Source: a virus (lineage: Duplodnaviria > Caudoviricetes). From it: DNA of 43,537 bases. The stretch spans positions 1 through 43,537 of IMG/VR virus record IMGVR_UViG_3300022936_000004; one strand, written 5' to 3'. The first letter of the stretch is position 1. Every line of letters starts with the position of its first letter. Shown here piece after piece: positions 2,387 to 39,127 of the stretch. Both the position numbers and the translations under genes were made by a program. The notes beneath the pieces were generated by a model. The model was given only the letters and a program-made list of their open reading frames with translations. It did not search any database and had not been told where the DNA came from.

Positions 2387-4896
2387 TATTCCTTGCCCCT
2401 TTTGGGTGCGGTTTCCATGTCCAGAACCTGTTCGATCTGGTCCGCCAGATTAAGATAGTCCTGCTCCATACCCGGTGCGGTGTTGGCCAGCTTACCGAGG
2501 CGCTTCACATGCGCGTTGATCGCCTGAATGTTGGGCTTCTTGTCCAGCGCCATCAGCCAACGGGCGAACTTGGGATTGCCCAACAACTTACCAGCGCCGA
2601 GCTGGGCTCCGATTGATAGAACGCCAAGCACAGGATTGGATACAAACGTCCCTGCCGTGCCAACGCCGCCAACCGCCAGACCTGTGCGCGAGGTGTTGGA
2701 GAACTTGCCGGATGCCTTCATTCCCCCTGCGATGCGCGCGATGTCATCCACCGCAACCCGATGTTCGCCATTGAACAGGAGCGCCTTGGCTCGCGGAGAA
2801 AGATCATTCCACTGCGTCATGAAGTCAGCCGGGGAAAACGCATTCCCTTCCGTGTTCTGCCTGCCCTTCGGAGCGCGTCCGAGCATCTCAAGCACACTGG
2901 CGCGTACGCTATTCTGCGCCTCTTCAGGAAGTGAGCGGAAACCCTGCGAGAACTTAGCCACATCCCCGCCCTTGGCTCGACCCCAGTTCATGAGGGTGCG
3001 ATAGGCCCGCTCCGGATTGGTCTGATAATCAGGGCCAAGCAATTCGGAGAATACCCTCTCCACGCGGCGTTCTCTTGCTCGGGCATAGTTATTCGCCCGC
3101 TCGAATGCCCTCAAGGCTCCGGGTCCCTGCGCCGCAGCGGTAGCGCGCATATCCTCGCTCAGCGCCCCGTAGAGCCCTCTCAGGCGTCGGATATCCGTGC
3201 CGTCCTTGGCAAGCCCCGGCTGCCCGATCTTCTCTCCGATGACGGAGCGGAAGCCCTTTAGGTCATCCCACGAAAGTCCGCCGTTCTTAGCGCCATCAGC
3301 AAGAGCTTCCGCTGTGGCCTGCAACATCGGATCATCCGACCAGATACGCGACAGCGCCGGATTGCTGGAAAATCCACGATTGGCTTCAGCCAGATAGCCG
3401 TTGACGTTATTGAGCTGAGCAGGTGCATCGCCCTGGATAGGGATGCGCTGATACAACGGCGCAACCTTGGCCTGCGTCCCGCTTTCGGCCTCTCGGATTC
3501 CGCGTTGAATTACCTGACCGATGCCAGCATCATCGCTGCGGACATTGCCGATACGCTCGGCTATGCCGGTACGCGCATTGGCCAGCGATGTAACCGCCCT
3601 GTCCGCGCCTTCCGAAAGCGGAATCGCGCCAAGCGTGGCGTTGGTGACCGCCGAAGCCATCTGAGATGAATACGCGCCGGGGCGATCAGCGGCGAGAACG
3701 TCAACCGGCAAGCCGCGCTCATCCATGCGCCCGACTGCGCTATCGAAGCGCCGACGTTCAAGAACCCGCTCCGGAGTGCCCCGAGTAGGGAGCAGCCGCC
3801 CAGCCTGTCCAGCAGCAGCGCCAAGTCCATAACCAGCCGGAGCGCCAATAGCGGAACCCGTGATACCGCCAATCCCACGCTCAGCAAAACTGTCCCCAGC
3901 CGATGCCCCTTCAGCGCCGCCGTAGATAGCGCCTTCCTTGCCGCTTTGGCGAGCAATGGCCGAACGGAACGCAGCGTTCGCTTCAGCTTTCGCCAAGGTA
4001 CGTGCAGCGGGACGGCTAAGCCCCTGCGCCAGTGCGGTGGAATAAACGCGCGCAGCCGTTTCCTTTGCCGCTAGCCCCCCCACACTACCGAGCTTGGTAG
4101 GCAGCGCCAGCGACCCCACGAAATCACCCGTACCGCGCAGATAGGGGCTGTTCTCCTGATCATAGTCACGGATGCCGCGCGAGCGGATAAGCTCGTCACC
4201 GAAATCACCGCCTGCTATCGTACCGAATAGGGCGTCCAGTTCGTCATCCAGTTCGAAAGGGACTGCGCCACGAGCAAACGCATCCACACCATCAGGCAGT
4301 AAGTTGCGGCTGTTGTCCCGAAAGTCGGCGGGCGGGCGCTGCCCCAGCATCAGGTAATCTTCAGTCGAGTTCTGCGTTAGCGGAATCGAAGGATCGCCCG
4401 TCTCAGGATCAATCGGAAGCCCACCATATTCCGCTTCGTACGCCCCGAGAATCTGAGGCGGGAGGGCGTCATCGATCACGCTCCATTTGGAAGTCTTGCC
4501 ACCCGGATAGTAGATCGTGACAAAGCCTTGAGGGTCAAACTCATAGCTTTCCGGGACCAGACCGGCGACACGCGAGGCCGCACCCTCAACGGAAGGATTG
4601 GCGAGACTTCCAAGGCCCTGAAGCGTGGCCATTCCCCGCCCCTCAACAGTGTCGAGGTCGTTCGGTTGCCCGTACAGGCTTTTCCAAGGGCGTTTACCCG
4701 TAGGCTGACGCGGCTGTTCCTCTACGGGAGCCTGTCCTTGGGGGGCAAAATCAATCACGCCTTCAAGTGAGGGGTCACCCTGTGGGGTCGTTACCGTCGA
4801 GGGATCAATTAGCGTGGGATCATCGGCAAGCGCCTCCGAACCCGCTACGGACTCGTTGGCGAAATCAATCAGGTCGTCCCAAGGATCGCGCGCCAT
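2386..4896 (-). CDS. Large DNA ejection (internal virion) protein, P22 gp16 position
   Basis: 836 aa, Ala/Gly-rich and helical; third gene of the ejection trio. Confidence 0.65.
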   Translation of the reverse strand: MARDPWDDLIDFANESVAGSEALADDPTLIDPSTVTTPQGDPSLEGVIDFAPQGQAPVEEQPRQPTGKRPWKSLYGQPNDLDTVEGRGMATLQGLGSLANPSVEGAASRVAGLVPESYEFDPQGFVTIYYPGGKTSKWSVIDDALPPQILGAYEAEYGGLPIDPETGDPSIPLTQNSTEDYLMLGQRPPADFRDNSRNLLPDGVDAFARGAVPFELDDELDALFGTIAGGDFGDELIRSRGIRDYDQENSPYLRGTGDFVGSLALPTKLGSVGGLAAKETAARVYSTALAQGLSRPAARTLAKAEANAAFRSAIARQSGKEGAIYGGAEGASAGDSFAERGIGGITGSAIGAPAGYGLGAAAGQAGRLLPTRGTPERVLERRRFDSAVGRMDERGLPVDVLAADRPGAYSSQMASAVTNATLGAIPLSEGADRAVTSLANARTGIAERIGNVRSDDAGIGQVIQRGIREAESGTQAKVAPLYQRIPIQGDAPAQLNNVNGYLAEANRGFSSNPALSRIWSDDPMLQATAEALADGAKNGGLSWDDLKGFRSVIGEKIGQPGLAKDGTDIRRLRGLYGALSEDMRATAAAQGPGALRAFERANNYARARERRVERVFSELLGPDYQTNPERAYRTLMNWGRAKGGDVAKFSQGFRSLPEEAQNSVRASVLEMLGRAPKGRQNTEGNAFSPADFMTQWNDLSPRAKALLFNGEHRVAVDDIARIAGGMKASGKFSNTSRTGLAVGGVGTAGTFVSNPVLGVLSIGAQLGAGKLLGNPKFARWLMALDKKPNIQAINAHVKRLGKLANTAPGMEQDYLNLADQIEQVLDMETAPKRGKE

Positions 4897-7980: not shown

Positions 7981-8466
7981 CTATGCCTGACGCCATACTA
8001 CCGAGCCAGTCGGGCCCTTGTAAATCTCTCCGATTGCCACCCCCGCGCTCGCAGCCGCCGCGTCGTCCGCGTAGGGACCGACAGCCGAGCTTGGGATTTT
8101 CCCCAGCGTTGGGAAATCGACATTGGTGTCAGCGGATAGATTGATCGTGCAGTCATAGCCTCCGTTGAGAAGCGGGACAGTCGTAAGCACGATAACCACT
8201 GTAGCGCCGGGGCCGTTGTCGATTATCTGGAGGCCAGTCCCAACGGCTAGAATGCGCTCTCTCGTCAACGTTTCGTTGGGCGATAGCGTGATGACCGTGG
8301 CATCCTGAATGGCGGTCGTTGCATCGACATTGGTAGCCGTCTGAGCGGTATTATCCGCAACCTGCTTCTGCTGCTGCTCGAAAGCATAGATCACTTTCGG
8401 GTTATCCCCGAACACCTTTCGCAGATCGTCACGGGTAAGGAAGGTTTGGAGCGCTGGCGTGGCCAT
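7981..8466 (-). CDS. Virion tail protein (gp26/needle position)
   Basis: Synteny after gp10; N-terminal coiled-coil-like segment. Confidence 0.5.
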   Translation of the reverse strand: MATPALQTFLTRDDLRKVFGDNPKVIYAFEQQQKQVADNTAQTATNVDATTAIQDATVITLSPNETLTRERILAVGTGLQIIDNGPGATVVIVLTTVPLLNGGYDCTINLSADTNVDFPTLGKIPSSAVGPYADDAAAASAGVAIGEIYKGPTGSVVWRQA

Positions 8467-12293: not shown

Positions 12294-12734
12294 TTACAGG
12301 GCAGTCACCGCAGTCACGTCATTGGTGAAGCCCGGACCGCCATCGGTCACCTCGTAAGGCGACTTCACCTTGAGGCGCTTGCACAGGGCCTGCACATAAG
12401 GCGTGCGGTTCTGGCCGTTGCGCTCCAGAGCGAGGAGGCCCTTGATGATATTCTCATCAAGCGGGTCTTTCGACTTTTCGGCTACTCGGTCTTCGAAAGC
12501 ATCGACACCCAGAAGCAGGAAGTCGGCAATGAAGGTGGTGTTCAGGTCGGCGGGTACGCGCTTGCTCTGCGCCTGAGCCGACTTGTCCTTGTCGCCATCG
12601 GTGCCGGTATCCGCGCCCATCGTGAGCTTGGCACCTTCCTTGATGTATTCCTTCGCGCCTTCGCGGCGGGCCTCATCGGCTTCCTTGGCGGTCAGATCGG
12701 GCAGCGGGTCGGGGGTGTGAATCTTTTCGGTCAT
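12294..12734 (-). CDS. Hypothetical protein (late operon)
   Basis: 146 aa ORF with RBS, ATGA-coupled to the endonuclease gene. Confidence 0.6.
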   Translation of the reverse strand: MTEKIHTPDPLPDLTAKEADEARREGAKEYIKEGAKLTMGADTGTDGDKDKSAQAQSKRVPADLNTTFIADFLLLGVDAFEDRVAEKSKDPLDENIIKGLLALERNGQNRTPYVQALCKRLKVKSPYEVTDGGPGFTNDVTAVTAL

Positions 12735-13474
12735 TCGTTCTCTCCTTGGAGTCTCAGTTTCCGCAGCCGATGTCCTTCGCGGATAGCGGCTGAACGCTTG
12801 GCACGGATTTCAGGGTCCTGCCACGAATTAGCAACGGCAGTGGCAATGCTCGCACAGTGGGCAGCGGTTCTCGGCTCATGCTTTCGCACCTTAGCCGCTG
12901 CGCTCATTTTAGCCCTTGTTTCGGGCGACATATTGCGTGCCCGCGCCGTGATCTTGGCAATCGTCTCCTTGCTATGCGCGTTGCCAATCATGCGAGCGCG
13001 GGACTTCTCTGCCATATTAGCCCTGCGCTCAGGGGTCCACGATGCATCGACACCAGCCGCGACCTTAGCTCGGTATTCAGGATCACTCCAGCGCGCAGCG
13101 GATGCCGCAGCTATTTTAGCGCGCGTTTCTTCGCTCGCCCTACGGCCCGTCGCCTTGGCAGCGATCTTGGCCGCAACCTTGGGGTCCTTGGAGGGTGCTG
13201 TATCACCGCCTTCTGTCACATTGTAACCACCCGGCGAAATGACGCCGCGCTCTGCGATCCAGCGGCGTTCTGCCGCGTGAAGTTCGGCCACTGTGCCGCA
13301 ACGCTCCAGAACCTCGACGGTTGGCTCACCATGCTTGCGCCACGCACAATGCACCGGCAACTGGCTTCCCGCCGTTACCTGCGCCTTGTGTGCCGTGATC
13401 CGCGTAGTGAGCATCTTAACCGTCTGTCCGATGTAGCGTTTGCCGTTGGCGAAAGTCAGTTGATAAACCAGCAT
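12731..13474 (-). CDS. Free-standing GIY-YIG homing endonuclease with NUMOD3-like repeats
   Basis: LVY...KRYIGQT, GYN, and repeated (H/A/M)S-x-ET-x-AK(I/M) motifs. Confidence 0.85.
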   Translation of the reverse strand: MLVYQLTFANGKRYIGQTVKMLTTRITAHKAQVTAGSQLPVHCAWRKHGEPTVEVLERCGTVAELHAAERRWIAERGVISPGGYNVTEGGDTAPSKDPKVAAKIAAKATGRRASEETRAKIAAASAARWSDPEYRAKVAAGVDASWTPERRANMAEKSRARMIGNAHSKETIAKITARARNMSPETRAKMSAAAKVRKHEPRTAAHCASIATAVANSWQDPEIRAKRSAAIREGHRLRKLRLQGENE

Positions 13475-13499
13475 CCAAAGTCTCCTTGGTTGAGACCCT

Positions 13500-13528
13500 T
13501 AGATACCCTAGATGCTGGTTTAATTCAA
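13500..13528 (-). promoter_or_regulatory. Sigma70-like promoter TTGAAT-N17-TATCTA for the endonuclease gene
   Basis: AT-rich spacer between the coat stop and the HEG; 17-bp spacing; AAGGAG RBS downstream. Confidence 0.45.
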
Positions 13529-13533
13529 TAGTC

Positions 13534-14814
13534 CTATACCTGATTGAACAACTGCACCCCGGCCATCTCGGTATTGAGCAGCGCGGTGCCGTAATCGATA
13601 TCGAAACGGAACTTGACGCTAAGGTCGTTGATCGCACCCTGCCGGGTATAGGTGACCGGGAGGCCCAGCACCGGAGTCGTGGCGCGCATCACTTCCCAAC
13701 CGTCTTCAGCATCGACCGCGAACGTACCCGGAAGCAGTTCCACCGCACCCTTGACGAAGAACGGATTCATATTGGCGGTGACGGTGTTCAGGAACGTGAT
13801 GACCGCGCCGTTGGTCGGAGTGGCCGAAACGTTCTTGTATTCCAGCTCAGCCTTCGTGCCGCCGCCGTTCGAGATGATCGGCGGCGTAATCTTGATCGTG
13901 CCGGTGCCGCCTGCGCCAGTGACGATTGCCACAACGCGGAAGGTCTTGAGCTGGCCCGTATCCGCCTTCGAAATGTGGTGGATCGAGTTTACGCCAGCGA
14001 TAGTGAAGGCATCGCCCACCTTGACGGTCGAAGTCGTGACGCCAATCGAAATCGTCTGGTAACGGTTGTCGATATTGGTCGTGTTGCCGTCCGCATCCAC
14101 GGTCGAACCGACCGGGGTGTAGAACAGCGGCAGCGTGTTGGTGATCGTCACGCCGGTTGCCGTGGCTGCTGCGAGCGGGCGCGACTGGTCGTTTTCGAAC
14201 AGGTCGAAGTTGCCCACGGTCTTGATATACGCGCGCTCGTATGCGGTGCGGTTGAGCGGGCTGTCCGAGGTCTGCGGCTTGGCGATGTTCTCTGCCATCG
14301 TCAGGTAATCGCGCGACGAATAGAACGCCTTGCGGTCATCCATCGGAACGCCCTGCTCGGTCATGATCGCGCCAGCAGCGGCCAGATCGGCAAAGCCCGA
14401 AGCCGCGACGGTGCGCTTACTCACCAGTGAAGCGTTGTTCACGACAGTGGTAAACACCGACTGATTCACCGCCGAAGCCAGCGTCTTCTTCGCGCCGTCG
14501 AAATAGCGCTGAAGCTGGAGCGGATCGCGCATGTCCTTGGACGACATCTTGCCGTTTGCGACCTTGTGCTGGCCGATGGTTACCGGGACCGAAAGCTGCG
14601 TGATGTCGCCGAAGTTGGCCGACTGATCGAAGCCGTCATAGACAGCCGGGATGTACGGCATCGGACGCCAAATCTTGTCGCTCATGCGCTGCGACTGGAC
14701 CGGGCTACCGATGTTGAAAACTTCTGCCTCGCGGGCGATGACGATCAGGTCTTCGAAGCTCGCCAGCATGTTGTCGAATGCGACGACTTCGTTCTTGGAG
14801 AAATTGTTAGCCAA
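13534..14814 (-). CDS. Major capsid protein, P22 coat (gp5) family; TTG start
   Basis: MANNFSK, IWRPMPYI, K-x-GD-x-FTIAGV, RFDIDYG...EMAG motifs; AGGAGG RBS. Confidence 0.92.
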   Translation of the reverse strand: MANNFSKNEVVAFDNMLASFEDLIVIAREAEVFNIGSPVQSQRMSDKIWRPMPYIPAVYDGFDQSANFGDITQLSVPVTIGQHKVANGKMSSKDMRDPLQLQRYFDGAKKTLASAVNQSVFTTVVNNASLVSKRTVAASGFADLAAAGAIMTEQGVPMDDRKAFYSSRDYLTMAENIAKPQTSDSPLNRTAYERAYIKTVGNFDLFENDQSRPLAAATATGVTITNTLPLFYTPVGSTVDADGNTTNIDNRYQTISIGVTTSTVKVGDAFTIAGVNSIHHISKADTGQLKTFRVVAIVTGAGGTGTIKITPPIISNGGGTKAELEYKNVSATPTNGAVITFLNTVTANMNPFFVKGAVELLPGTFAVDAEDGWEVMRATTPVLGLPVTYTRQGAINDLSVKFRFDIDYGTALLNTEMAGVQLFNQV

Positions 14815-20918: not shown

Positions 20919-21203
20919 TTATACCTTTGGAGGGGAGGGTGTGCAAGGGTTGGTGCGTACGGTGTGGGCGTCCGAGCAATCCCATGCCCGAATGTCAGGC
21001 ACCTCTCCGGCCCGACCGCAGGCATAACCGACCTCAAGACCCTCTTTGAACGCCTCCTCAACAAGCAAGGATAGACGTTCGATCTCGGTGGCTGCTTCGT
21101 CGCCGTCGGGGTTGCGCGGGACGGTAACTGGGCGAGACCATCCCTGCTCTGGGACCTGAATCACCCGCTTCGACCGCAGCCGTTCCAGTAGCCCTTCATT
21201 CAT
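20919..21203 (-). CDS. Hypothetical protein (start revised to MNEGLLERL)
   Basis: LLERLR...PRNPDGDEAATEIERL motif common in phage accessory genes. Confidence 0.6.
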   Translation of the reverse strand: MNEGLLERLRSKRVIQVPEQGWSRPVTVPRNPDGDEAATEIERLSLLVEEAFKEGLEVGYACGRAGEVPDIRAWDCSDAHTVRTNPCTPSPPKV

Positions 21204-22101
21204 GGGTGGTGTCCTTGCTGGCAGGGGTGGGCGTCTGCCCGTTGGGCACCGCGCTTTCGCCTTCGGTCGAGCCACTGCGTGTCTCGCCGCTTCGCGCTTC
21301 AATCGCTGACGCTTGCTCGTGCAGCCAGTTCCATGCGCCAGTCAGAGCGCGCGCGATCTGCGGGCTATTCGGACTCGTGCCAGTGTGGCAGATCACGGTT
21401 CCGCTGCCTTCGATGTAGAGGCCGTGCATATGCTGCGGGCCGCTCTGGTCGAAATAGGCGGTGGTCAGCTTGACGCTCTCCGCGACATGGTTTGCGTGGC
21501 CGTCAGCGTCGAACGCCTCGGTCTGGCCCCACTCCGCAATGCCGACCTTCAGCACGATCTCGCGGATATCATCCGGAATGTCCGCGCTAGGGATCGTACC
21601 GGCGGAGCCGACAAGACCCGCAGGGGCTTCGCCCGAAGGGGTAGAGCCCGGGTCCGAAGGACAGCGCCCATCCTCAGGTCGATCCATCAGGACTGTACCA
21701 GAGGAGGCGCGGAGAGCTTCGGCGACCGCGTTCCAGTAGGTGCGTTCAGTGTCCGCGACAGGGTAGCGGTGAAAATCGCCGTCAGGCTGGCCGACCTTGA
21801 TCGCGGCTTCAATCGCCTCGTCCTCCACCAAGCTGGTGCTATGCTCGGGAGTTGGACGGGTGAGGTTTTCGAGGTGCGAGACTTCCCAGCCATCGACCAG
21901 ATCGCCATTGCAGACCGGAGGCCATTTCTCCGATATGGTGATGTCGTAACCGCCCATCATCTCGGGCGCGTACCGGATCGCGACGACATGCGCTTCAACG
22001 TCCCGCCAATCCGCCGCGTAGGCCATGGGCAGCAAATGTGATTTGCAGAATACGAGGTCACCAATCTGGTGAGGACACGGCAGGTGCTTCGGCTCACCCA
22101 T
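21196..22101 (-). CDS. Mosaic hypothetical protein containing two translated structured repeats
   Basis: 301 aa; elements E2 and E1 are read in frame. Confidence 0.6.
   Translation of the reverse strand: MGEPKHLPCPHQIGDLVFCKSHLLPMAYAADWRDVEAHVVAIRYAPEMMGGYDITISEKWPPVCNGDLVDGWEVSHLENLTRPTPEHSTSLVEDEAIEAAIKVGQPDGDFHRYPVADTERTYWNAVAEALRASSGTVLMDRPEDGRCPSDPGSTPSGEAPAGLVGSAGTIPSADIPDDIREIVLKVGIAEWGQTEAFDADGHANHVAESVKLTTAYFDQSGPQHMHGLYIEGSGTVICHTGTSPNSPQIARALTGAWNWLHEQASAIEARSGETRSGSTEGESAVPNGQTPTPASKDTTHE
21230..21312 (-). repeat. Structured repeat element E1
   Basis: GCGTCAGCGATTGAAGCGCGAAGCGGCGAGACACGCAGTGGCTCGACCGAAGGCGAAAGCGCGGTGCCCAACGGGCAGACGCC. Confidence 0.85.
21584..21668 (+). repeat. 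Structured repeat element E2 (inverted partner of E1)
   Basis: GCGCTAGGGATCGTACCGGCGGAGCCGACAAGACCCGCAGGGGCTTCGCCCGAAGGGGTAGAGCCCGGGTCCGAAGGACAGCGCC. Confidence 0.75.
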
Positions 22102-24312: not shown

Positions 24313-24782
24313 GAGGGGTCTCCAGATGGAGTTTGGGCGTCTGGCTGCGCCACCGCGCTCTCGCCTACGGCTGCGCCCGTTCCGGTCGCATCGCTTCGCG
24401 CTTCGATCGCTGACGCGTGAGTTTCGAGAGCCGCCGCTAGTTCGCGAAGCTGGCAAGCATCATCGAACGGGCACTCTCCCCTGTCGGACAGGGGGCACTC
24501 GGAAACACCGGTGGTCCAGTCCATGGGACTGACGCGCGCGCATCCCGGTTCGCAATCGATCCGGTCAGCTACAGCACGCAGCACGTCCACCGATGCGCCG
24601 CGATGTTCGACCTTCAAGGTGTAAACAGCATCCCGATACTCGACCATCTGCCGAAAGCGGAGTTCGCTCGACGCCTTGTATTGGTCGCGCTCTTCGATGA
24701 TGCGCTGCCTCTCACCGCGCGCCATCCACCACCAACGGCGAACGACGTTGCGGGTGTCGCGGATTGCCCGTCCAACTTTCAT
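24309..24782 (-). CDS. Hypothetical protein ending in translated element E3
   Basis: C-terminus ASAIEARSDATGTGAAVGESAV. Confidence 0.55.
   Translation of the reverse strand: MKVGRAIRDTRNVVRRWWWMARGERQRIIEERDQYKASSELRFRQMVEYRDAVYTLKVEHRGASVDVLRAVADRIDCEPGCARVSPMDWTTGVSECPLSDRGECPFDDACQLRELAAALETHASAIEARSDATGTGAAVGESAVAQPDAQTPSGDPS
24336..24416 (-). repeat. Structured repeat element E3
   Basis: GCGTCAGCGATCGAAGCGCGAAGCGATGCGACCGGAACGGGCGCAGCCGTAGGCGAGAGCGCGGTGGCGCAGCCAGACGCC. Confidence 0.85.
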
Positions 24783-25012
24783 TTCGCCCTCCTGAGAAGA
24801 TGCGCCAGTTCAAGCGCGCTACGCACGTGACTCATGATGATCTGATCGTCGCTGGAAACCGACTGCATGACCGCCGCGCCAAGGTGGGCGATGATTTCCG
24901 CAATCACATCCGCGCTAGGGATTGAAGCCGGGACGGGCGAGACAGCTTGCTGGCTCGATGCCGAAGGCACGAAAGCCCGGTCCGGTACGGAAGCGCCATT
25001 ATCCTCGCTCAT
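24779..25012 (-). CDS. Hypothetical protein beginning with antisense element E4
   Basis: N-terminus ...VSPVPASIPSAD. Confidence 0.5.
   Translation of the reverse strand: MSEDNGASVPDRAFVPSASSQQAVSPVPASIPSADVIAEIIAHLGAAVMQSVSSDDQIIMSHVRSALELAHLLRRAK
24912..24997 (+). repeat. Structured repeat element E4 (inverted partner of E3)
   Basis: GCGCTAGGGATTGAAGCCGGGACGGGCGAGACAGCTTGCTGGCTCGATGCCGAAGGCACGAAAGCCCGGTCCGGTACGGAAGCGCC. Confidence 0.85.
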
Positions 25013-25218: not shown

Positions 25219-25562
25219 GATGGAGTTCCTTGGTGGGCACGGGCCTTCAGGGCCGCTGCGCAGATCGCCAGTGGGATGCTGTTGCAGGCGTTTTCGCCGT
25301 AGAAAGGGTAGCCGTCCGCACCGTGGTTCATGTTGATCGTGACGCGCGCGACCCGATAGAGCGTCGTGATTTCGATCTCGTCGCGCATGTCGGCGTGAAC
25401 CAGCGTCATTGCTGCGTCGATGGAGGCGGTGTAATGCGGACCGAGATCACCTCGCTGCCCACGCCTCAGCACGTAAGCGCTTTGCAAGATGGCCGCATCA
25501 AGTTCGCGATCCGGACCCGTCGCAGACTCACACCGAGCCGCCAGTTCGTTCAGATCACCCAC
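25215..25562 (-). CDS. Phage ABA-sandwich-like domain protein
   Basis: GPDRELDAAI...PHYTASIDAAMTLV...PLAICAAALKA. Confidence 0.65.
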   Translation of the reverse strand: MGDLNELAARCESATGPDRELDAAILQSAYVLRRGQRGDLGPHYTASIDAAMTLVHADMRDEIEITTLYRVARVTINMNHGADGYPFYGENACNSIPLAICAAALKARAHQGTPS

Positions 25563-26064
25563 GATCAGCCTCCATCTTACCTTGAGGGGTGGTCTCGTGT
25601 TCGCCGCATCCGCGACCGATCAGTTCGCCATGCGCGCCAGCAGTGAAGTCCTGCCACGACACGAATCCTTGCGGGCAATGGAAGCCCCAATCGCGAACCT
25701 TCGGGCCAGGGAAAAACAGCGAGATGCAGGGCTTGCCGCCAACCAGTTCAAGGCGATGGCTGTCCGTCGCCCTCCGATGAATCAGCGCGCCAGCCTCACG
25801 GAGAAACGTTCCATCCGGCGTGATTTCGCGGTATGCCCCGGCAAGCAGAAGCGAGACGTTATCCCACGGATGATCGTGCAGCGCGCGGTCGTCGTCATCG
25901 CGCAGGATTTCGTGCAGATAGACGTTCTGGAACTCATTGCGCGGAACGATCCACCAACGCCGCAGATAGGCCGGATCGCCGATCACGAAGTCGGGGCCGT
26001 GGATCATCTTGGCGCGCGCCCATGCGGCCATGTCGCCAATATCGGTGTAATCGAGACGGCTCAC
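25555..26064 (-). CDS. Cupin-fold phage protein
   Basis: YLRRW...YLH...DDDRALHDHPW...GAYRE...HRLEL...WGF. Confidence 0.7.
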   Translation of the reverse strand: MSRLDYTDIGDMAAWARAKMIHGPDFVIGDPAYLRRWWIVPRNEFQNVYLHEILRDDDDRALHDHPWDNVSLLLAGAYREITPDGTFLREAGALIHRRATDSHRLELVGGKPCISLFFPGPKVRDWGFHCPQGFVSWQDFTAGAHGELIGRGCGEHETTPQGKMEADRG

Positions 26065-26768
26065 TTCCCCTCTCCCATCTTACCCTTGGTGGGGGAGAGG
26101 AGGGCGCGGGCGACGTGTCGAGCGCGCGACTGGTCCTTCCAGTTGTTGCCAGCGATCTGCTCCAGCCCCTCTCGTAGCTGGCGGATTTCAGCTATTAGGG
26201 TGGGGGCTTGGTTGCGGAGTTCCGAGATAAGGGCTGCGTTGGCGGCGCTTTCGCGGTTGAAGGCATCGTCACCCGGCACCTTCGGATCGATTGCCGAATG
26301 GTGCACGTAGTTGAGGCTTGCGATTGATCGTCCCGATGAAGCGACAACCGGCCAGCCAACAACCGTAGATGGCTTTGCGGCGGCAATCCAAGGCCCCGGC
26401 GTCGCTTCCGCCAGCAGTTTCTCTATATGGTCGATATTGGTCGCGATATCAGTAGGCTGCGGCGCATTCTCCGTAGCCGGAGAACCGGGCTTTCGTCCTT
26501 CGGACTGAGCCACCTTCGGCGTCTCATCGGTTCCCGCTTCAATCCCTTGCGAGATGACGCGGTAACGCACAATGTCGGCGTGCTGGTAGCCGTACCCAGT
26601 TTTGGCGTAGGGGGCAGGAGTATACTCCCACCAATTCCAGCTTTGGCCGAATTTACCCGCGTTGTCGGTCTCCTCATACCCATCGCGGCACTCAACCTCG
26701 ACCAGCGCCTCAGGATCGACAGGGCATTCCCCACCGTTCCATTCTATCCATTGAGGAGTGTTGGTCAT
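26061..26768 (-). CDS. Two-domain accessory protein (WIEWNGGECPV domain + Ead/Ea22-like domain) joined by element E5
   Basis: ATPGPW...ANAALI...NQAPTLIAEIRQLR at the C-terminus; the linker is E5. Confidence 0.65.
   Translation of the reverse strand: MTNTPQWIEWNGGECPVDPEALVEVECRDGYEETDNAGKFGQSWNWWEYTPAPYAKTGYGYQHADIVRYRVISQGIEAGTDETPKVAQSEGRKPGSPATENAPQPTDIATNIDHIEKLLAEATPGPWIAAAKPSTVVGWPVVASSGRSIASLNYVHHSAIDPKVPGDDAFNRESAANAALISELRNQAPTLIAEIRQLREGLEQIAGNNWKDQSRARHVARALLSPTKGKMGEGK
26461..26552 (-). repeat. Structured repeat element E5
   Basis: TCGCAAGGGATTGAAGCGGGAACCGATGAGACGCCGAAGGTGGCTCAGTCCGAAGGACGAAAGCCCGGTTCTCCGGCTACGGAGAATGCGCC. Confidence 0.85.
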
Positions 26769-27949: not shown

Positions 27950-28261
27950 TCACTCTTCCTCCATTGCCTTGGTTATCCATGCGCCATAGCAATCCCGATG
28001 ATCCCACGGGAGGAAGGGATAGGGCGTCCCGTCCTTTCGCTCCTGTGCAGCGCCAAGATGGAAGCCGTGCTTGTACGCATCGGGAGCAATGACCTTTAGC
28101 GCCGCCATACCCCACGGAGCCAGCAAGCGGTTCATATCCTCGTCGCTCAGCTTGGCGTTCTCTTCCTCCGTGAATTGTGCTCTCATCCCCTCACGTAAGG
28201 TTCCTAGTCCCTCTATAGGCTCGTCTAGGATAGAGGAGGTTACTTTGTGGATTAGGGTCAT
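27950..28261 (-). CDS. Hypothetical protein
   Basis: 103 aa, coupled. Confidence 0.55.
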   Translation of the reverse strand: MTLIHKVTSSILDEPIEGLGTLREGMRAQFTEEENAKLSDEDMNRLLAPWGMAALKVIAPDAYKHGFHLGAAQERKDGTPYPFLPWDHRDCYGAWITKAMEEE

Positions 28262-28749
28262 GATACTGTCCTTTCGGCGTCTGCCTGCGGCACCGCGCTT
28301 TCGTCTGCGATCAAGCCAGCTTCGCCGTCTTGCCCCTTACGGGCTTCAATCGCTGACGCACGGGTATGTCCGAGCCTGTGCGCTGCAGGGTGGTGTCCTG
28401 CGCTCTTAATCTGGTTCCCAATGCGCAAAGTGCGCTCCGGTGCGATGAGATGGGCAAAGGCAACCGCGTCTCTCGCATGACTATCGTTTGGGTAGCTGGT
28501 CGCATAAAGCAACAAGCAGTCCACATGATTAAAGGCCCACCACCGCAGACTTTCAACCTCATCGGTCAGCCGCGCATTGGCCGCTCGCTCGCTATCCAGC
28601 GTTGTTACGGCTTCGTGGTATTCTCTACCCTTCTCGGTGAGAATTGCCATCTGGGCCTCCAGCGAGGCGCACAGCGTACGATAGGCCCGGTTCTGCGCCA
28701 GTAGACCCTCCCTCGTTTCGGGAATCGGCGCTTTTGCTGCGCTGCTCAT
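28258..28749 (-). CDS. Coiled-coil hypothetical protein ending in element E6
   Basis: LDSERAANARLTDEVE; C-terminus ASAIEARKGQDGEAGLIADESAV. Confidence 0.6.
   Translation of the reverse strand: MSSAAKAPIPETREGLLAQNRAYRTLCASLEAQMAILTEKGREYHEAVTTLDSERAANARLTDEVESLRWWAFNHVDCLLLYATSYPNDSHARDAVAFAHLIAPERTLRIGNQIKSAGHHPAAHRLGHTRASAIEARKGQDGEAGLIADESAVPQADAERTVS
28276..28359 (-). repeat. Structured repeat element E6
   Basis: GCGTCAGCGATTGAAGCCCGTAAGGGGCAAGACGGCGAAGCTGGCTTGATCGCAGACGAAAGCGCGGTGCCGCAGGCAGACGCC. Confidence 0.85.
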
Positions 28750-28799: not shown

Positions 28800-29246
28800 G
28801 GGTTCCGCCTCTAGTGGCCCCTACCTGAGGGCTAGTTCCTCAGTCAGACCGGTGGCAGTGTCACTATCATCTTTGAGCTGTCTTTAACGATGGTGGTTTC
28901 TAATCCTGAGATTAGACCTGCCATCTACTGCGATGGGTTTTAACGTCTCCCCTGACGCTAGTGGCCGACCGTCTGCCGTCGTCGCTTAGTTCGTTTATGC
29001 CAGTTTCGAGGCCGCAGTTTATCCCTAGCGCGATGCCGCATCGGGAGCCGGAACCGATCTGCCCCTATTTCCGGGCAGGCAAAGTTGCCGACAGCTTCCG
29101 TCAGTTTAAACTACCTGATTGACCAGCAGGCTGTGCGAGGGAGGCTCGGCACTGTTGAGCGCGATTATGTCGCTCGGCTGTCTAACCCTCACTTGGACCC
29201 TTGATTACGGCTCAACGTCCACTCCAAAGCCGGTTGGAGGGACGTT
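28800..29246 (+). ncRNA. ~450-nt ORF-free, hairpin-dense element (candidate ncRNA or replication origin)
   Basis: At least eight stems, with G-U/G-T pairs that favour the + strand; possible promoter GTGATA-N17-CATAAT at 28769-28797. Confidence 0.5.
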
Positions 29247-33613: not shown

Positions 33614-33703
33614 CTTATTGCACATAGCGCAACGCCTCGCAATCAGCTTATTTTCACACCACGCAAAATAGTGCTTGCACGCCACGCAAACCGAGCGCAT
33701 AAC
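33614..33703. promoter_or_regulatory. Divergent early promoters with three 15-bp operator-like repeats TT(G/T)CAC-N4-CGCAA
   Basis: Repeats at 33618-33632, 33652-33666, 33675-33689; rightward TTGCAC-N17-CATAAC at 33675-33703; leftward TTGCGA at 33642-33637. Confidence 0.7.
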
Positions 33704-33737
33704 CCTGACATCGCCGCAGTGGCGAAGGAGGAAGACG

Positions 33738-34325
33738 ATGGCGAAGCTTAGCAAGAATACCCGCGAGCGCATGGCGAAGGCGCTGGTCCGTCATCGCTAC
33801 CAGGGCCGCGCTGACGAACTGCTGGTGGAAAGCGCCGCCTTGTTCGATGCGGTCTATGAGGCGCGCTACGATGCGCCAACGCGCTCGTTGATGGGCAAGC
33901 TGGAAAAGCTGCACCCGAAAGCATTCTCTACCGCCAACCAGTTCATGATCAACGCTCGCGGGATGCGGGTCGGCATCGGCGCTTACGCAGTCGGTATCTA
34001 CGCTCTCGTGCGCTGGGAGCAGAACCTGCCAAACCGCTCCGTCTTCGACCGATACAATGAAACCGCTCCCGAGGAGCTTGTGGATCGTATCGCAGAGTTC
34101 GGCCTTTCCACGAAAGCCTTCGATGACGCGGTGAAGCAAGCCTATACCCGCGCGCTCGGCACGATCAATCAGTTCGGCACCGCCAAGCGGCTTGCCGAGG
34201 AATGGCCCGAAGCCATGCCCATCATCGGCGAACTGATCCCGACCGAGGACCGCACCCTGCCCGTCGTGCAGCTTGAAGCGATCAACGACGAGTTCGGCCT
34301 GCCGCCATCGGATATCGCAGCGTAA
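33738..34325 (+). CDS. Nmad5-family (nucleotide modification associated domain 5)-like protein
   Basis: KLSKNTRERMA...TAKRLAEEWPEA...LPVVQLEAINDEFGLP; AGGAGG RBS. Confidence 0.7.
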   Translation: MAKLSKNTRERMAKALVRHRYQGRADELLVESAALFDAVYEARYDAPTRSLMGKLEKLHPKAFSTANQFMINARGMRVGIGAYAVGIYALVRWEQNLPNRSVFDRYNETAPEELVDRIAEFGLSTKAFDDAVKQAYTRALGTINQFGTAKRLAEEWPEAMPIIGELIPTEDRTLPVVQLEAINDEFGLPPSDIAA

Positions 34326-34960: not shown

Positions 34961-35286
34961 CACTCACTGAATCAATAGAGCAAGCCTCCCTCTGGAAGGT
35001 AGAGGCTTATCCGGTAATCAAGGCTTACCTGCTCGCCGTCGAGGCGCGGGATGTGCTGGCCGGTGCGAGTACGATCACAGGGCAATACCTCGCCCACTCG
35101 TTTCTGAGGCAGGCGTACGCCCACATCGAGGAACTGCGTGAGCAGGCGATAGAGCACAATTCCGGCATCTTCCTCGACACCATGACAGACGAGCAATGGC
35201 GTGAGGCCGAAGCCTTCAGTGAGGAACTCAATCGTTCTGTTCCTACTGTTATAGATGCTATTAGGGAGGTGGAAAGTGAAGGATAA
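34957..35286 (+). CDS. Hypothetical protein (MTLTESIEQ...)
   Basis: Coupled start. Confidence 0.55.
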   Translation: MTLTESIEQASLWKVEAYPVIKAYLLAVEARDVLAGASTITGQYLAHSFLRQAYAHIEELREQAIEHNSGIFLDTMTDEQWREAEAFSEELNRSVPTVIDAIREVESEG

Positions 35287-35740
35287 TCAAGGCGTTACCC
35301 CTGAGGGGGTCGGGCTTTCGCCTGCTACGCAGGTCGAGCCAGTGCCTGTCTCGCCGGTTCCCGCTTCAATCCCTAACGCGGCCTCGCCCAGCCCGTGGAA
35401 GGCGTGTAGAAATGGCGACTGTTCGTGTGGCCAGATTTGGTCCGTTCCGGCAGACCATCCCGTTGCGACGGTCGATGGTCCAGAATGGGGTGACACGCTA
35501 TGGGTGCCGCTCCAGAACGAGGACGGCTCTCTGGATGTCCGGCGAGAATTTCACGCATACGGTTCGTTCCCTGCCGAAACGCGCAAGGCCAACATTCTAC
35601 TGATGACCGCCGCGCCTGAACTGTTACAGGCCACCTTGGCGCTCTATGCGCTGATCGCGACCGATGCGCGCTATGAAGGCAGCGAGTGCGCGGACCTTGC
35701 ACGAGAGGCCATCGCCAAGGCAACGGGAGTAACCCCATGA
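35276..35740 (+). CDS. Hypothetical protein beginning with antisense element E7
   Basis: GGAGG RBS, GTG start; SPSPW...ANILLMTAAPELL...AIAKATG. Confidence 0.6.
   Translation: MKDNQGVTPEGVGLSPATQVEPVPVSPVPASIPNAASPSPWKACRNGDCSCGQIWSVPADHPVATVDGPEWGDTLWVPLQNEDGSLDVRREFHAYGSFPAETRKANILLMTAAPELLQATLALYALIATDARYEGSECADLAREAIAKATGVTP
35291..35379 (-). repeat. Structured repeat element E7
   Basis: GCGTTAGGGATTGAAGCGGGAACCGGCGAGACAGGCACTGGCTCGACCTGCGTAGCAGGCGAAAGCCCGACCCCCTCAGGGGTAACGCC. Confidence 0.85.
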
Positions 35741-35931
35741 TCGACCATCGCCCCAGCTCATATAACCGCTCATTCTACGAGAGGCCCATCCAAGGTAATG
35801 GGAGGGATGCTTTCGACTATGGGCGGGTATCGTTCAAACGACCTCGCGATCCATGGACCAAGCCCGTGCTTATCGGGGCTGTGGTCGTGGTCCTGTATTT
35901 TGTGGCGCAGATTTTGCGCTCGGCTTTCTGA
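35737..35931 (+). CDS. Small C-terminal-TM protein
   Basis: Coupled; hydrophobic C-terminus. Confidence 0.55.
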   Translation: MIDHRPSSYNRSFYERPIQGNGRDAFDYGRVSFKRPRDPWTKPVLIGAVVVVLYFVAQILRSAF

Positions 35932-35942
35932 GGAGAATTACG

Positions 35943-36278
35943 ATGGGCATCAGCACCCACGTCTACACCGTTTATGGTGTGAAGCACCCGTACAGCTCGG
36001 AGTTTTCCGAAGCGCAGGAGATTGACGACCTCTATAAGCTAACGTCCGAAGTTGCCATCTCAGACGGCATGGGCGGGGAGTATCTCATCATTGGGAAAAT
36101 CCTTTTCGACAGCGGAGACGCGCGCTGGGAGTCGCTGTCCGGCTTTGTCGAAATCGATCCGGCCAATCTCGGGCTCGCCAAGGAGGAGGCGTCGGCCAAG
36201 TTCATTGAAATCATGCCCGAGTTTGCGCACCTGCTTAACGCGCCGTGGCGGCTTATGACGTTCGCGCATTACAGCTAA
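35943..36278 (+). CDS. Hypothetical protein (MGISTHVYTVYG...)
   Basis: GAGGAG RBS; DGMGGEY motif. Confidence 0.65.
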   Translation: MGISTHVYTVYGVKHPYSSEFSEAQEIDDLYKLTSEVAISDGMGGEYLIIGKILFDSGDARWESLSGFVEIDPANLGLAKEEASAKFIEIMPEFAHLLNAPWRLMTFAHYS

Positions 36279-36339
36279 CCCCATCAAAGCAGAGTAGCTT
36301 CCTCCCATTGACTTACTCTGCTTTGCCCGGAGGGTGGTT

Positions 36340-36421
36340 GGCGATGCCTTTCAGGCCCGCGCTATCATCGCTTCGCGACCGAGCCTAAAGTCTCGGCCCT
36401 CCGGGTTTCTATCGCTATCGC
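36340..36421 (-). repeat. Structured repeat element E8
   Basis: GCGATAGCGATAGAAACCCGGAGGGCCGAGACTTTAGGCTCGGTCGCGAAGCGATGATAGCGCGGGCCTGAAAGGCATCGCC. Confidence 0.8.
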
Positions 36422-36435
36422 AAGGAGAAATTATT

Positions 36436-36741
36436 ATGGGTAATCACGCTATTGGCCGCGCATTTGTGGCAGCGGCCACCATCGCCGCCGAGCGCCGCCG
36501 CGAAGGTGAGACCGCGATTCAGATATTAGACGAGGCCGCTGATCGCACCGAAGTGCGCGGGATGGACGCTGAGTTCGACGACGCCTTCTTGCCCGGTGAG
36601 CCCATGTTTGCGCTTGTCGTAGAGGCGTTCGGAGACGGTGCTGACTTTAGCGAACCAGACGAAGGCGAGTGCGACGAGTTCTGGGATCGCTTCTACGGCG
36701 GCCCCTACGCTAAATTCCGCGAACGCTACGACCTCGGCTAA
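36436..36741 (+). CDS. Acidic hypothetical protein; cargo of the E8/E9 cassette
   Basis: AAGGAG RBS at 36422; MGNHAIGRAF...DAEFDD. Confidence 0.7.
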   Translation: MGNHAIGRAFVAAATIAAERRREGETAIQILDEAADRTEVRGMDAEFDDAFLPGEPMFALVVEAFGDGADFSEPDEGECDEFWDRFYGGPYAKFRERYDLG

Positions 36742-36744
36742 CCC

Positions 36745-36824
36745 GCGATAGCGACACTCAGCCGTAGGCTGGAGACGGCGAAGCTGGCTCCACTCGGGAG
36801 TGGCGTGGGCCGCAAGGCATCGCC
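36745..36824 (+). repeat. Structured repeat element E9 (variant; inverted partner of E8)
   Basis: GCGATAGCGACACTCAGCCGTAGGCTGGAGACGGCGAAGCTGGCTCCACTCGGGAGTGGCGTGGGCCGCAAGGCATCGCC; shares AGACGGCGAAGCTGGCT exactly with E6. Confidence 0.8.
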
Positions 36825-36859
36825 AATACTTAATCTGGAACCAACCTAGAAGGATAGAG

Positions 36860-37069
36860 ATGATGGCCAACAAGTGGATGGCGACAATTCAATCTGCCGT
36901 GGCGGTCGCTCTAGCAGCGTGGTTTGTGCACTCCGGGCAAGCCATTTTGGCCGTGGTCACGTTAGGAATGTTCAGCTTGATACACGCGGTGTTTTTAGAC
37001 CTCTGGCGCGCCATGTCTCGGGAGCAGCGTGATCTCATCAAGGAGATTACCGAGAGCCTGCGCGCATGA
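36860..37069 (+). CDS. Two-TM membrane protein
   Basis: AAGGA RBS; hydrophobic. Confidence 0.55.
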   Translation: MMANKWMATIQSAVAVALAAWFVHSGQAILAVVTLGMFSLIHAVFLDLWRAMSREQRDLIKEITESLRA

Positions 37070-38351: not shown

Positions 38352-38771
38352 ATGCAGATCATCACCATTTCCGGCAACCTTGGCCGCGATCCAGAGATGC
38401 GCTCTACGCAGGGAGGGGATACCGTTCTCTCGTTCAGCGTCGGCGTTCAGAACGGCTTCGGTCGGGACTCCGGCAGTAACTGGTATCGCTGCTCCGTGTG
38501 GGGCAAGCGTGCCGACTCGCTCAATTCGATCATGCGCAAGGGACAACGGGTTTTCGTGACCGGCGCGCTGACTATCGGCGAATACAACGGCAAGCCGCAA
38601 TATGACGTGCGGGTGTCCGAGGTGGACGTTGTGAAGGGTGTCGGCAATAGCGACACCCCTAGCGATGAACCTCGTCAGACGGGCGGCGGTGGTGGCGGTT
38701 ACACCAATGACGATCTAGACGACGATGTACCGTTTGCTCATCCCTATCCCGGTAGGAATAGGAATATCTGA
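38352..38771 (+). CDS. ssb: Single-stranded DNA-binding protein
   Basis: GNLGRDPE, W-x-R-x-x-VWGK, KG..V.V.G, acidic DDDVPF tail. Confidence 0.92.
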   Translation: MQIITISGNLGRDPEMRSTQGGDTVLSFSVGVQNGFGRDSGSNWYRCSVWGKRADSLNSIMRKGQRVFVTGALTIGEYNGKPQYDVRVSEVDVVKGVGNSDTPSDEPRQTGGGGGGYTNDDLDDDVPFAHPYPGRNRNI

Positions 38772-39127
38772 TGCTGCCAGCCCGCATTCCGAAAAAGGCC
38801 AAGCGCGCGACCCGGTGGAAGTCTCAGGCACATCGCGATTTTGTCCGCTCCCACGGCTGCTGCAAATGTGGCTCTACGGCTGCAATTGAGTTTGCGCACG
38901 TGCGGCTCGGGTCGGGTGCGGGCATGGGGCAAAAACCGGATGACTGGCGCGGTGTCAGCCTATGCCACGAATGCCACACCGGATCAGCCACCGCTCAGCA
39001 TAACGTTGGCGAGCGCTCGTTTTGGGTCGGCATTGATCTGGACGGGCTGATTGCGGCTTTCATCAAAGCCAGCCCGCGCCGCGCTCAGATTGAGCAAGCC
39101 ATGAGGGAGCGAGATAATGGATATTGA
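38771..39127 (+). CDS. DUF968-like putative HNH nuclease
   Basis: FVRSHGCCKCG, AHVR, GMGQKPDD, LCHECH. Confidence 0.7.
   Translation: MLPARIPKKAKRATRWKSQAHRDFVRSHGCCKCGSTAAIEFAHVRLGSGAGMGQKPDDWRGVSLCHECHTGSATAQHNVGERSFWVGIDLDGLIAAFIKASPRRAQIEQAMRERDNGY

Follow-up and report, generated by a model that had tools for sequence, protein, structure and literature searches.

The window, as we call the whole stretch of 43,537 nucleotides that was analysed, is a circular 43.4-kb phage genome whose ends overlap by 127 nt. Its portal, head, head-closure and DNA-ejection genes are P22-like, and the early region is lambdoid. A GIY-YIG/NUMOD3 homing endonuclease gene lies immediately after the major head gene (12731-13474, minus strand), and the accessory regions 33675-34325 and 25555-26064 carry an Nmad5 (nucleotide-modification-associated) gene and a cysteine-dioxygenase-like gene. 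No integrase, integron integrases included, was identified among the 75 and 59 window ORFs scanned, and PHROGs and Pfam revealed neither an integrase nor an HUH gene in the window. A folded element of about 80 nt is present in nine copies, E1 to E9, of which six form three head-to-head pairs. The central stem of the element has one of two registers, G type (GGG/CCC) or C type (GCG/CGC). The features of the window discussed here are the following:

21227-21312, minus strand: E1, C type, head-to-head with E2 (pair 21227-21671)
21584-21671, plus strand: E2, G type
24333-24416, minus strand: E3, C type, head-to-head with E4 (pair 24333-25000)
24912-25000, plus strand: E4, G type
26460-26555, minus strand: E5, unpaired
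28273-28359, minus strand: E6, unpaired, C type, at the 3' end of ORF 28258-28749
35289-35379, minus strand: E7, unpaired, G type, within the start of ORF 35255-35740
36286-36324: perfect 11-bp hairpin (arms 36286-36296 and 36314-36324) directly outside E8, read from the sequence
36341-36421, minus strand: E8, C type, terminal stem GCGAT...ATCGC, 5' G (36421) toward the cargo gene, tail CAA extending to 36338
36422-36427, plus strand: AAGGAG ribosome-binding site (RBS), abutting the 5' end of E8
36436-36741, plus strand: cargo gene, encoding a 101-aa acidic protein of a conserved family
36745-36823, plus strand: E9, C type, GCGAT...ATCGC, 5' G (36745) toward the cargo gene, tail CAA extending to 36826
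38771-39127, plus strand: DUF968/YbcO-like His-Me-finger nuclease gene, a weak candidate helper

A single minus-strand ORF (21196-22035) is open through both E1 and E2, and the match between the gene inside E3/E4 and an element-free relative stops no more than 4 nt short of the 5' end of E3. Positions 28995-29034 (minus strand) show a partial, weak match to the 5' start of the element, possibly a remnant. The original prediction, made from the letters alone, was that E8 and E9 bracket exactly one RBS and one ORF, and all of its coordinates hold when the sequence is re-read. Positions 36338-36350 are the exact reverse complement of 36814-36826. The inner ends are identical, E8 beginning with GCGATAGCGA at 36421 on the minus strand and E9 with GCGATAGCGA at 36745, three bases past the ORF stop, and the AAGGAG begins at 36422, flush with the E8 5' end. 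No target-site duplication of 4-12 nt was found at any outer boundary tried and no sigma-70-like promoter in 35900-36900, as anticipated. In the covariance model E8 scores 69.5 bits and E9, whose central stem is a CACTC/GAGTG variant, 49.3 bits; both belong to the training set. The cargo protein has no PHROG, Pfam or Atlas match. It has 30 homologues, itself included, of which two named close relatives are Sphingomonas and Sphingobium proteins, and from these two and the related isolates we infer a sphingomonad as the host.

In order to define the family, a degenerate 20-mer was used to recover at least 127 IMG/VR loci, and two further scans added more; the seed patterns preset part of the 5' motif. 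Conservation has a sharp onset at the 5' GCG and declines toward the 3' end. The fold, drawn from 110 aligned copies, has a three-way and a four-way junction. A terminal stem (GCGxy/x'y'CGC) is followed by the central stem, an unpaired A.G, tandem GA positions and a four-way junction that carries three hairpins, with one more hairpin ahead of the 3' end. One junction pair is C-G, G.A or A.G and is standard in 55% of copies. Paired cells in the 110 sequences reach 94.7%, compared with 75.6% in 500 shuffles and 28-44% when the alignment is slid, and there are 391 double changes versus 116 in the control; the structure was derived from the same sequences used for these counts, and the controls lean in its favour. 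An independent parse, which succeeded for 141 of 166 copies, finds the five variable pairs complementary in 126, 124, 137, 136 and 132 of them. The first two are positions 4-5 of the terminal stem, for which the shuffle means are 54 and 46; they are variable yet paired, giving seven common subtypes. As E8 and E9 folded singly are no more stable than shuffles, either as RNA or as DNA (DNA z -0.98 and -1.81), the evidence for the fold is this covariation. A search of Rfam with the window and 17 loci, at E up to 1, returned no match over any element.

The hairpin loops indicate which nucleic acid is folded. Hairpin A (n=131) has 99 GNA triloops and four GNRA loops, and hairpin D (n=130) has 72 GNA triloops and 25 GNYA loops. 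GNA triloops are a DNA signature, and they point to an element that acts as single-stranded DNA. Mini-hairpins of this kind occur 568 times on the given strand against 19 times on its complement, and the given strand is the better-folding of the two in 260 of 265 copies. A role as regulatory RNA structures or as peptide-coding repeats, with genes bracketed only incidentally, is highly improbable. Although 234 of the 265 copies are open in the sense frame from the GCG, and many encode terminal peptides, the loops are of DNA type, both orientations to transcription occur (46 sense and 39 antisense among 85 copies assigned), the plasmid copies described below are non-coding and the breakpoints are precise. 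The two types differ in orientation, 32 of the 39 antisense copies being G types and 33 of the 46 sense copies C types.

Analysis of 39 phage records shows how the copies are arranged. These records comprise the window, two isolates and 36 of 50 searched IMG/VR records, the 50 having been picked for element number and completeness. They hold 173 elements, and the reversed-sequence control gives no matches. Among 62 neighbours at most 700 bp apart, 51 are head-to-head, eight tail-to-tail and three direct, while 5000 strand permutations yield a mean of 19.3 and a maximum of 33 head-to-head neighbours. The inverted arrangement of folded sites, proposed from a single locus, is the rule across the family, and 102 of the 173 elements belong to head-to-head pairs. 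Both ends could be parsed in 41 pairs. A G type is joined to a C type in 36 of them, the gap has a length of 3n+1 in 29, and one ORF runs through both arms in 27. The typical product consists of a start codon and leader, a reverse-read element, a variable body, a forward-read element and then the stop, which overlaps the next gene; start and leader thus come from the left arm, while tail, stop and the coupling to the next gene come from the right one. The element is also present in the cultured phages Sphingopyxis phage VSN-002, which has a pair at 13843/14220, and Mvi-Yong1342-1.

The E8/E9 pair is atypical, since the gene it encloses is complete, RBS and stop included, its gap is 323 and it is C/C. 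It is one of five homotypic pairs among the 41 and the only one whose two terminal stems are of a single subtype. The 13-bp outer repeat is exact, but it is not a special terminal repeat; it is the shared 3' end of one subtype. The 11-mer AAGGCATCGCC forms the 3' end of nine of the 265 family members, and among 1114 pairs of GCGAT-subtype elements from different sources, 71 match over at least 13 nt. The inner and outer symmetries of the locus are both due to the fact that E8 and E9 are of subtype GCGAT...ATCGC.

These observations bear on the mobile unit first proposed for the locus, a promoterless cassette composed of E8, the gene and E9 that moves between phages as a whole. The exact bracketing of one RBS and ORF is what such a unit would look like, and some elements do move with their inner flank. 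Homologues of the cargo gene were found at 31 loci, of which one is the window and five are duplicates, leaving 25 distinct others, 21 of them with at least 120 nt on both sides. None of the 25 has an element within 100 nt on either side, so the expectation of the same flanks in other contexts fails, and the nearest elements lie 108 and 127 nt downstream. At one locus (L002) a 9-nt piece resembling the 5' start of the element lies directly upstream of the homologue, with about 0.34 such 9-mers expected by chance over the windows checked. An empty site was sought through the upstream neighbour gene, which led to one distant locus without elements. In contigs, in which rare circles or inversions would not show, neither an empty site nor a circle or an inversion of E8/E9 was found, and a comparison of the 2.6-kb region with isolated phages gave only one element-level match. 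With the outer ends fuzzy and the 13-mer a subtype feature, the travelling cassette is largely refuted and very improbable.

Exchange between phages was examined by comparing 34,713 cross-source pairs of the 265 elements, with a threshold of at least 25 nt shared on one side. Of the 27 rows that passed, 20 share the outer side only; 19 of these have 0-2 nt of inner homology and one has 5 nt. In all 14 rows that share at least 47 nt of outer flank (about nine independent groups) the homology ends 0-2 nt from the GCG. The other seven of the 27 rows share inner sequence, three of these being identical or same-contig duplicates; gapped BLAST shows further phage pairs that keep the inner or both flanks, and the row comparison partly dropped them. 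Three phages (L106, L056 and L109) share a left arm of 140-148 nt, which runs from the start codon to the GCG at 93-96% identity and is followed by three unrelated inserts. L106 and L056 rejoin 1 nt before the right GCG, and their inserts of 544 and 310 nt are in frame. Different cargo between equivalent elements, a pattern named as a check in the original proposal, occurs in the pairs of these other phages. A contig from another study (run X2) matches window positions 35208-35379 with four differences and diverges exactly at the 5' G of E7. The cargo of G012 is 87-89% identical to an element-free gene of G020, with the match ending 5 nt from one GCG and 1 nt from the other, and the arms stand in place of the first and last few codons of the native gene. 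Microhomology at the native junctions is patchy, being clear in G012/G020 and absent at E3; at one junction a native GAGCAA lies opposite the GCGCAA of the element.

Folded sites that bound exchangeable coding DNA, as originally suggested, are therefore a property of the family, with near-nucleotide precision; what does not stand is the bracketed gene as a travelling unit, or the outer inverted repeats as its ends, for the precise boundary is the inner 5' GCG. As shared arms hold unrelated cargo and none of the 25 homologue loci is bracketed, the comparison of sequences indicates that the arms stay and the cargo changes. Our preferred reading, to which we assign a little less than even confidence, is that an inward-facing pair acts as a constant frame whose enclosed gene can be exchanged; the element would serve as a single-stranded DNA signal read by a host replication factor, with template switching at the base of the stem.

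Single elements also border differences between phages. L090 (2381-2500) and its near-identical relatives L125 and L239 differ by a 120-nt versus a 23-nt AT-rich segment directly 5' of a single element, and L082 and L334 differ from L328 by a whole extra gene in the same position. As judged from the alignments, the differences in L090, L082 and L334 are one-ended gains at the GCG. In L061 (4309-4440) and L070 (785-916) the element directly adjoins an attachment-site sequence of tRNA-like type, after which comes an integrase gene, and in L070 an element pair brackets the integrase region.

Fine mosaicism is general in these phages, which also have many gene-junction segments of 25-64 nt in common that are free of elements. 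Such segments span a stop, an RBS, a start and a few codons and are near-identical, while the gene bodies on both sides are unrelated. Examples are L106 at 2165-2202, 258-304 and 4109-4147 (in L106, L056 and L109) and L093 compared with L160, in accessory regions that otherwise have no similarity, and at some of them three phages have the same breakpoint. Such segments may be remnants of earlier captures, or they may belong to a linker system of their own. Their existence favours an account based on passive dispersed homology, in which single-strand annealing recombines copies within the conserved 5' bases, selection keeps the junction signals, and the fold is inherited from plasmids and has no role in joining. 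An exchange within the conserved first ~17 nt of two copies would yield the same boundary, an identical outer flank is found with different element subtypes, and ERF/YqaJ, NinB and SSB genes are common in these phages. Nevertheless, we consider this account unlikely. Most cargos have no element-bearing relative in the sequences compared (six of 41 have a tblastx match below 97% identity, among the matches listed) and the element-free natives end at the GCG, so that a first-time joining to element-free DNA is needed. Compensatory change keeps the fold in phage copies, and homology leaves the heterotypic pairing of 36 of 41 pairs unexplained.

The element is not confined to phages. With 29 candidates per genome scored, the covariance model identified one to four copies in 14 of 151 alphaproteobacterial genomes. 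The 15 chromosomal copies examined are single within 1.5 kb and mostly lie beside ArdC, relaxase, toprim or defence-type genes; no HUH (Y1) transposase gene was found among the 44 ORFs beside them. Four chromosomal conjugative-element loci (L437, L438, L442 and L445) have another conserved motif, hairpin-like in appearance, about 60-120 nt 5' of the element, in the interval that separates it from ardC. Plasmid copies were found in Klebsiella IncF, Massilia, Xanthomonas, Methylocystis and Bradyrhizobium. The F plasmid has copies at 58089-58176 (73 bits) and 63477-63564 (58 bits), which correspond to 8090-8177 and 13478-13565 of locus L539, both within a 555-nt duplication of 89% identity that precedes ssb and the gene at 64032. 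PMC9849209 places Frpo2 and Frpo1 at the genes downstream of these two copies. R46 has three copies (L543, 22076-26387) and R388 two (L542, 20075-24219), near long upstream repeats; in R46 the element lies about 90-130 nt beyond repeats of ~440 nt at two of three long copies, and one copy stands alone. The pKM101 repeats are described as little studied in PMC6294495. Although 3752 of 5426 E. coli genomes give a match, many of these are over the flank only, and the figure is not an element count.

Position and strand are consistent among plasmids. In F, pRJF866, R388 and for two of the three R46 copies the element lies in the leading region, on the template strand of the leading genes, and the same holds for Massilia, Xanthomonas, Bradyrhizobium and four ardC loci. 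The F element is on the strand where Frpo is listed, about 95 nt 3' of the listed ssiD sequence. It is absent from the five known Frpo/ssi sequences compared (ssiD, ssiE and three ColIb Frpo; PMC11541004 Supplementary Table 2). By eye, three candidate Frpo* sequences in the same table run into the element at their 3' ends. There is no match in ColIb-P9 10,000-59,999 or in F 1-50,000, and none in phiX174 or ColE1, whose primosome sites were considered as members of the same family and rejected. Plasmid copies are single or direct, and nearly all are of G type. Since homology continues 5' of the element in plasmids, its 5' end is not an exchange point there, and the exchange behaviour, on these alignments, seems to be phage-specific. 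No function assigned to an element beside the plasmid Frpo/CUP-type repeats was found in the literature.

Several known systems resemble the element in part. The element itself lies in the leading regions of conjugative plasmids, just beyond the Frpo/ssiD repeats of F, the CUP repeats of R46/pKM101 and the long repeats of R388. In phages it occurs without Frpo, in inverted heterotypic pairs and often inside reading frames. The CUP of IncN plasmids are conserved regions of more than 400 bp upstream of establishment genes, of which the element may be a part. Integron attC sites are likewise strand-specific folded DNA, conserved in structure over sequence, that bounds variable genes. However, attC is a single imperfect hairpin with R and L boxes (RYYYAAC...GTTRRRY), whereas the element is multi-branched with GCG...CGC ends; attC arrays are direct, whereas element pairs are inverted, with only three of 62 close neighbours direct; and the cargo of the element is usually fused in frame to its arms, with no integrase found among the window ORFs scanned. 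The DUF1874 motif is proposed as a complex attC-like site in PMC5737381; it gave no Rfam match to the element, if the motif is in release 15.

Short folded repeats that form inverted doublets or encode in-frame peptides include REP/REPIN with RAYT, MITEs, mobile insertion cassettes and Rickettsia palindromic elements. The element is similarly short and folded, with inverted doublets and in-frame peptide coding. It has few chromosomal copies among the 29 candidates scored per genome, mostly in conjugative-element contexts, and no adjacent transposase, and it shows replacement at one end rather than simple insertion. Transposons, MITEs and mobile insertion cassettes have sharp outer terminal inverted repeats, whereas the element is sharp at the inner 5' end only. 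Transposons and MITEs also leave a target-site duplication and carry their cargo with their ends, and E8/E9 does neither (4-12 nt tried; none of 25 loci). Lambdoid boundary or linker sequences and T4-type PeSL cassettes are short shared gene-junction sequences that drive phage mosaicism. Similar element-free linkers are abundant in these phages; the element, in contrast, is branched in a conserved manner, its breakpoint is one-sided and near-exact, and E8/E9 has no promoter consensus. In its features the element falls outside attC, MITE, REP and the listed ssi sites; it works in an attC-like way and sits with Frpo/CUP-type repeats.

The occurrence of phage accessory genes at clean borders is a long-standing question and is usually ascribed to rare illegitimate recombination. 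A defined folded site that marks gene borders to 0-2 bases, and is present in cultured phages, makes this question testable. Beside the single-stranded DNA promoters of F, R46 and R388, the element may supply something still missing from the picture of plasmid establishment. The literature surveyed yielded no description of the phage element; it included PMC5737381, PMC5714182, PMC3167613, PMC9849209, PMC7690428, PMC11541004, PMC12282955, PMC7213743 and PMC6294495; the original CUP, ssi and Frpo papers and motif-catalogue supplements were outside its scope. This is a real and apparently undescribed use of a folded DNA element.

In the mechanism that we favour, the element would be a single-strand signal recognised by a host replication factor, for priming or restart. 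A host factor is suggested because the element sits on the Frpo-bearing strand of conjugative plasmids, and because no recombinase or transposase family was found among the most widespread clusters of the 39-record phage set. A priming role is by analogy only, since the element lies outside ssiD/Frpo and ssiE and has no phiX174 or ColE1 match. Red-type recombination or rolling-circle replication would expose phage DNA as single strands. Copying of the element could then stop at the foot of the terminal stem and continue on foreign DNA via a few bases of microhomology. A single event would leave a lone element at a module border, and one event per strand would enclose a captured fragment between a pair of arms. 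Of such captures, those that are in frame or comprise a whole gene would be retained by selection, and at E8/E9 a whole gene with its own RBS would occupy the frame. If this joining is real, the pair is a compact natural cloning frame. It is also possible, though on the doubtful side, that temperate phages co-opted a host-read, leading-region single-stranded DNA signal of plasmids for directional gene capture, with G and C elements on opposite strands joining any foreign DNA at their 5' bases and forming translation frames for new genes, with no recombinase encoded by the element.

Alternatively, a dedicated enzyme could cut and transfer strands at the base of the fold, as attC integrases do and HUH enzymes do at REP/IS200, with the 3' arm of the stem possibly guiding the target and DUF968 or an enzyme acting in trans as catalyst. 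The sharp 5' end, the variable but paired positions 4-5 with their seven subtypes and the native GAGCAA opposite GCGCAA are all in line with such an enzyme. So is the distribution of DUF968/YbcO, which is present in 37 of the 39 element-bearing records and ranks top of all clusters (6718 ORFs clustered). The family consists of His-Me fingers near recombination genes according to PMC5714182. In 38 control contigs, selected by terminase or cargo, mostly incomplete and not host-matched, DUF968 is found in seven and elements in one, which also has DUF968. Four isolates, Pan3, ppBeUSDA76-2, EBPR podovirus 2 and DMCA (40 of 52 kb), have DUF968 without the element, and this DUF968 clade is present in only one of the 14 element-bearing bacterial genomes. 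DUF968 as a sufficient enzyme was rejected on these two grounds. A His-Me nuclease would, moreover, cut and not join, and neither PHROGs nor Pfam points to an integrase or HUH gene in the window. Overall, a dedicated enzyme is quite unlikely, and judged by these distributions DUF968 is at most a helper, itself a weak candidate. Two phages deposited with cyanobacterial hosts, Mvi-Yong1342-1 and Pan3 (L161 and L530), carry elements or DUF968; the DUF968 in this case is 62% identical to that of the window, a similarity that suggests an alphaproteobacterial host for them.
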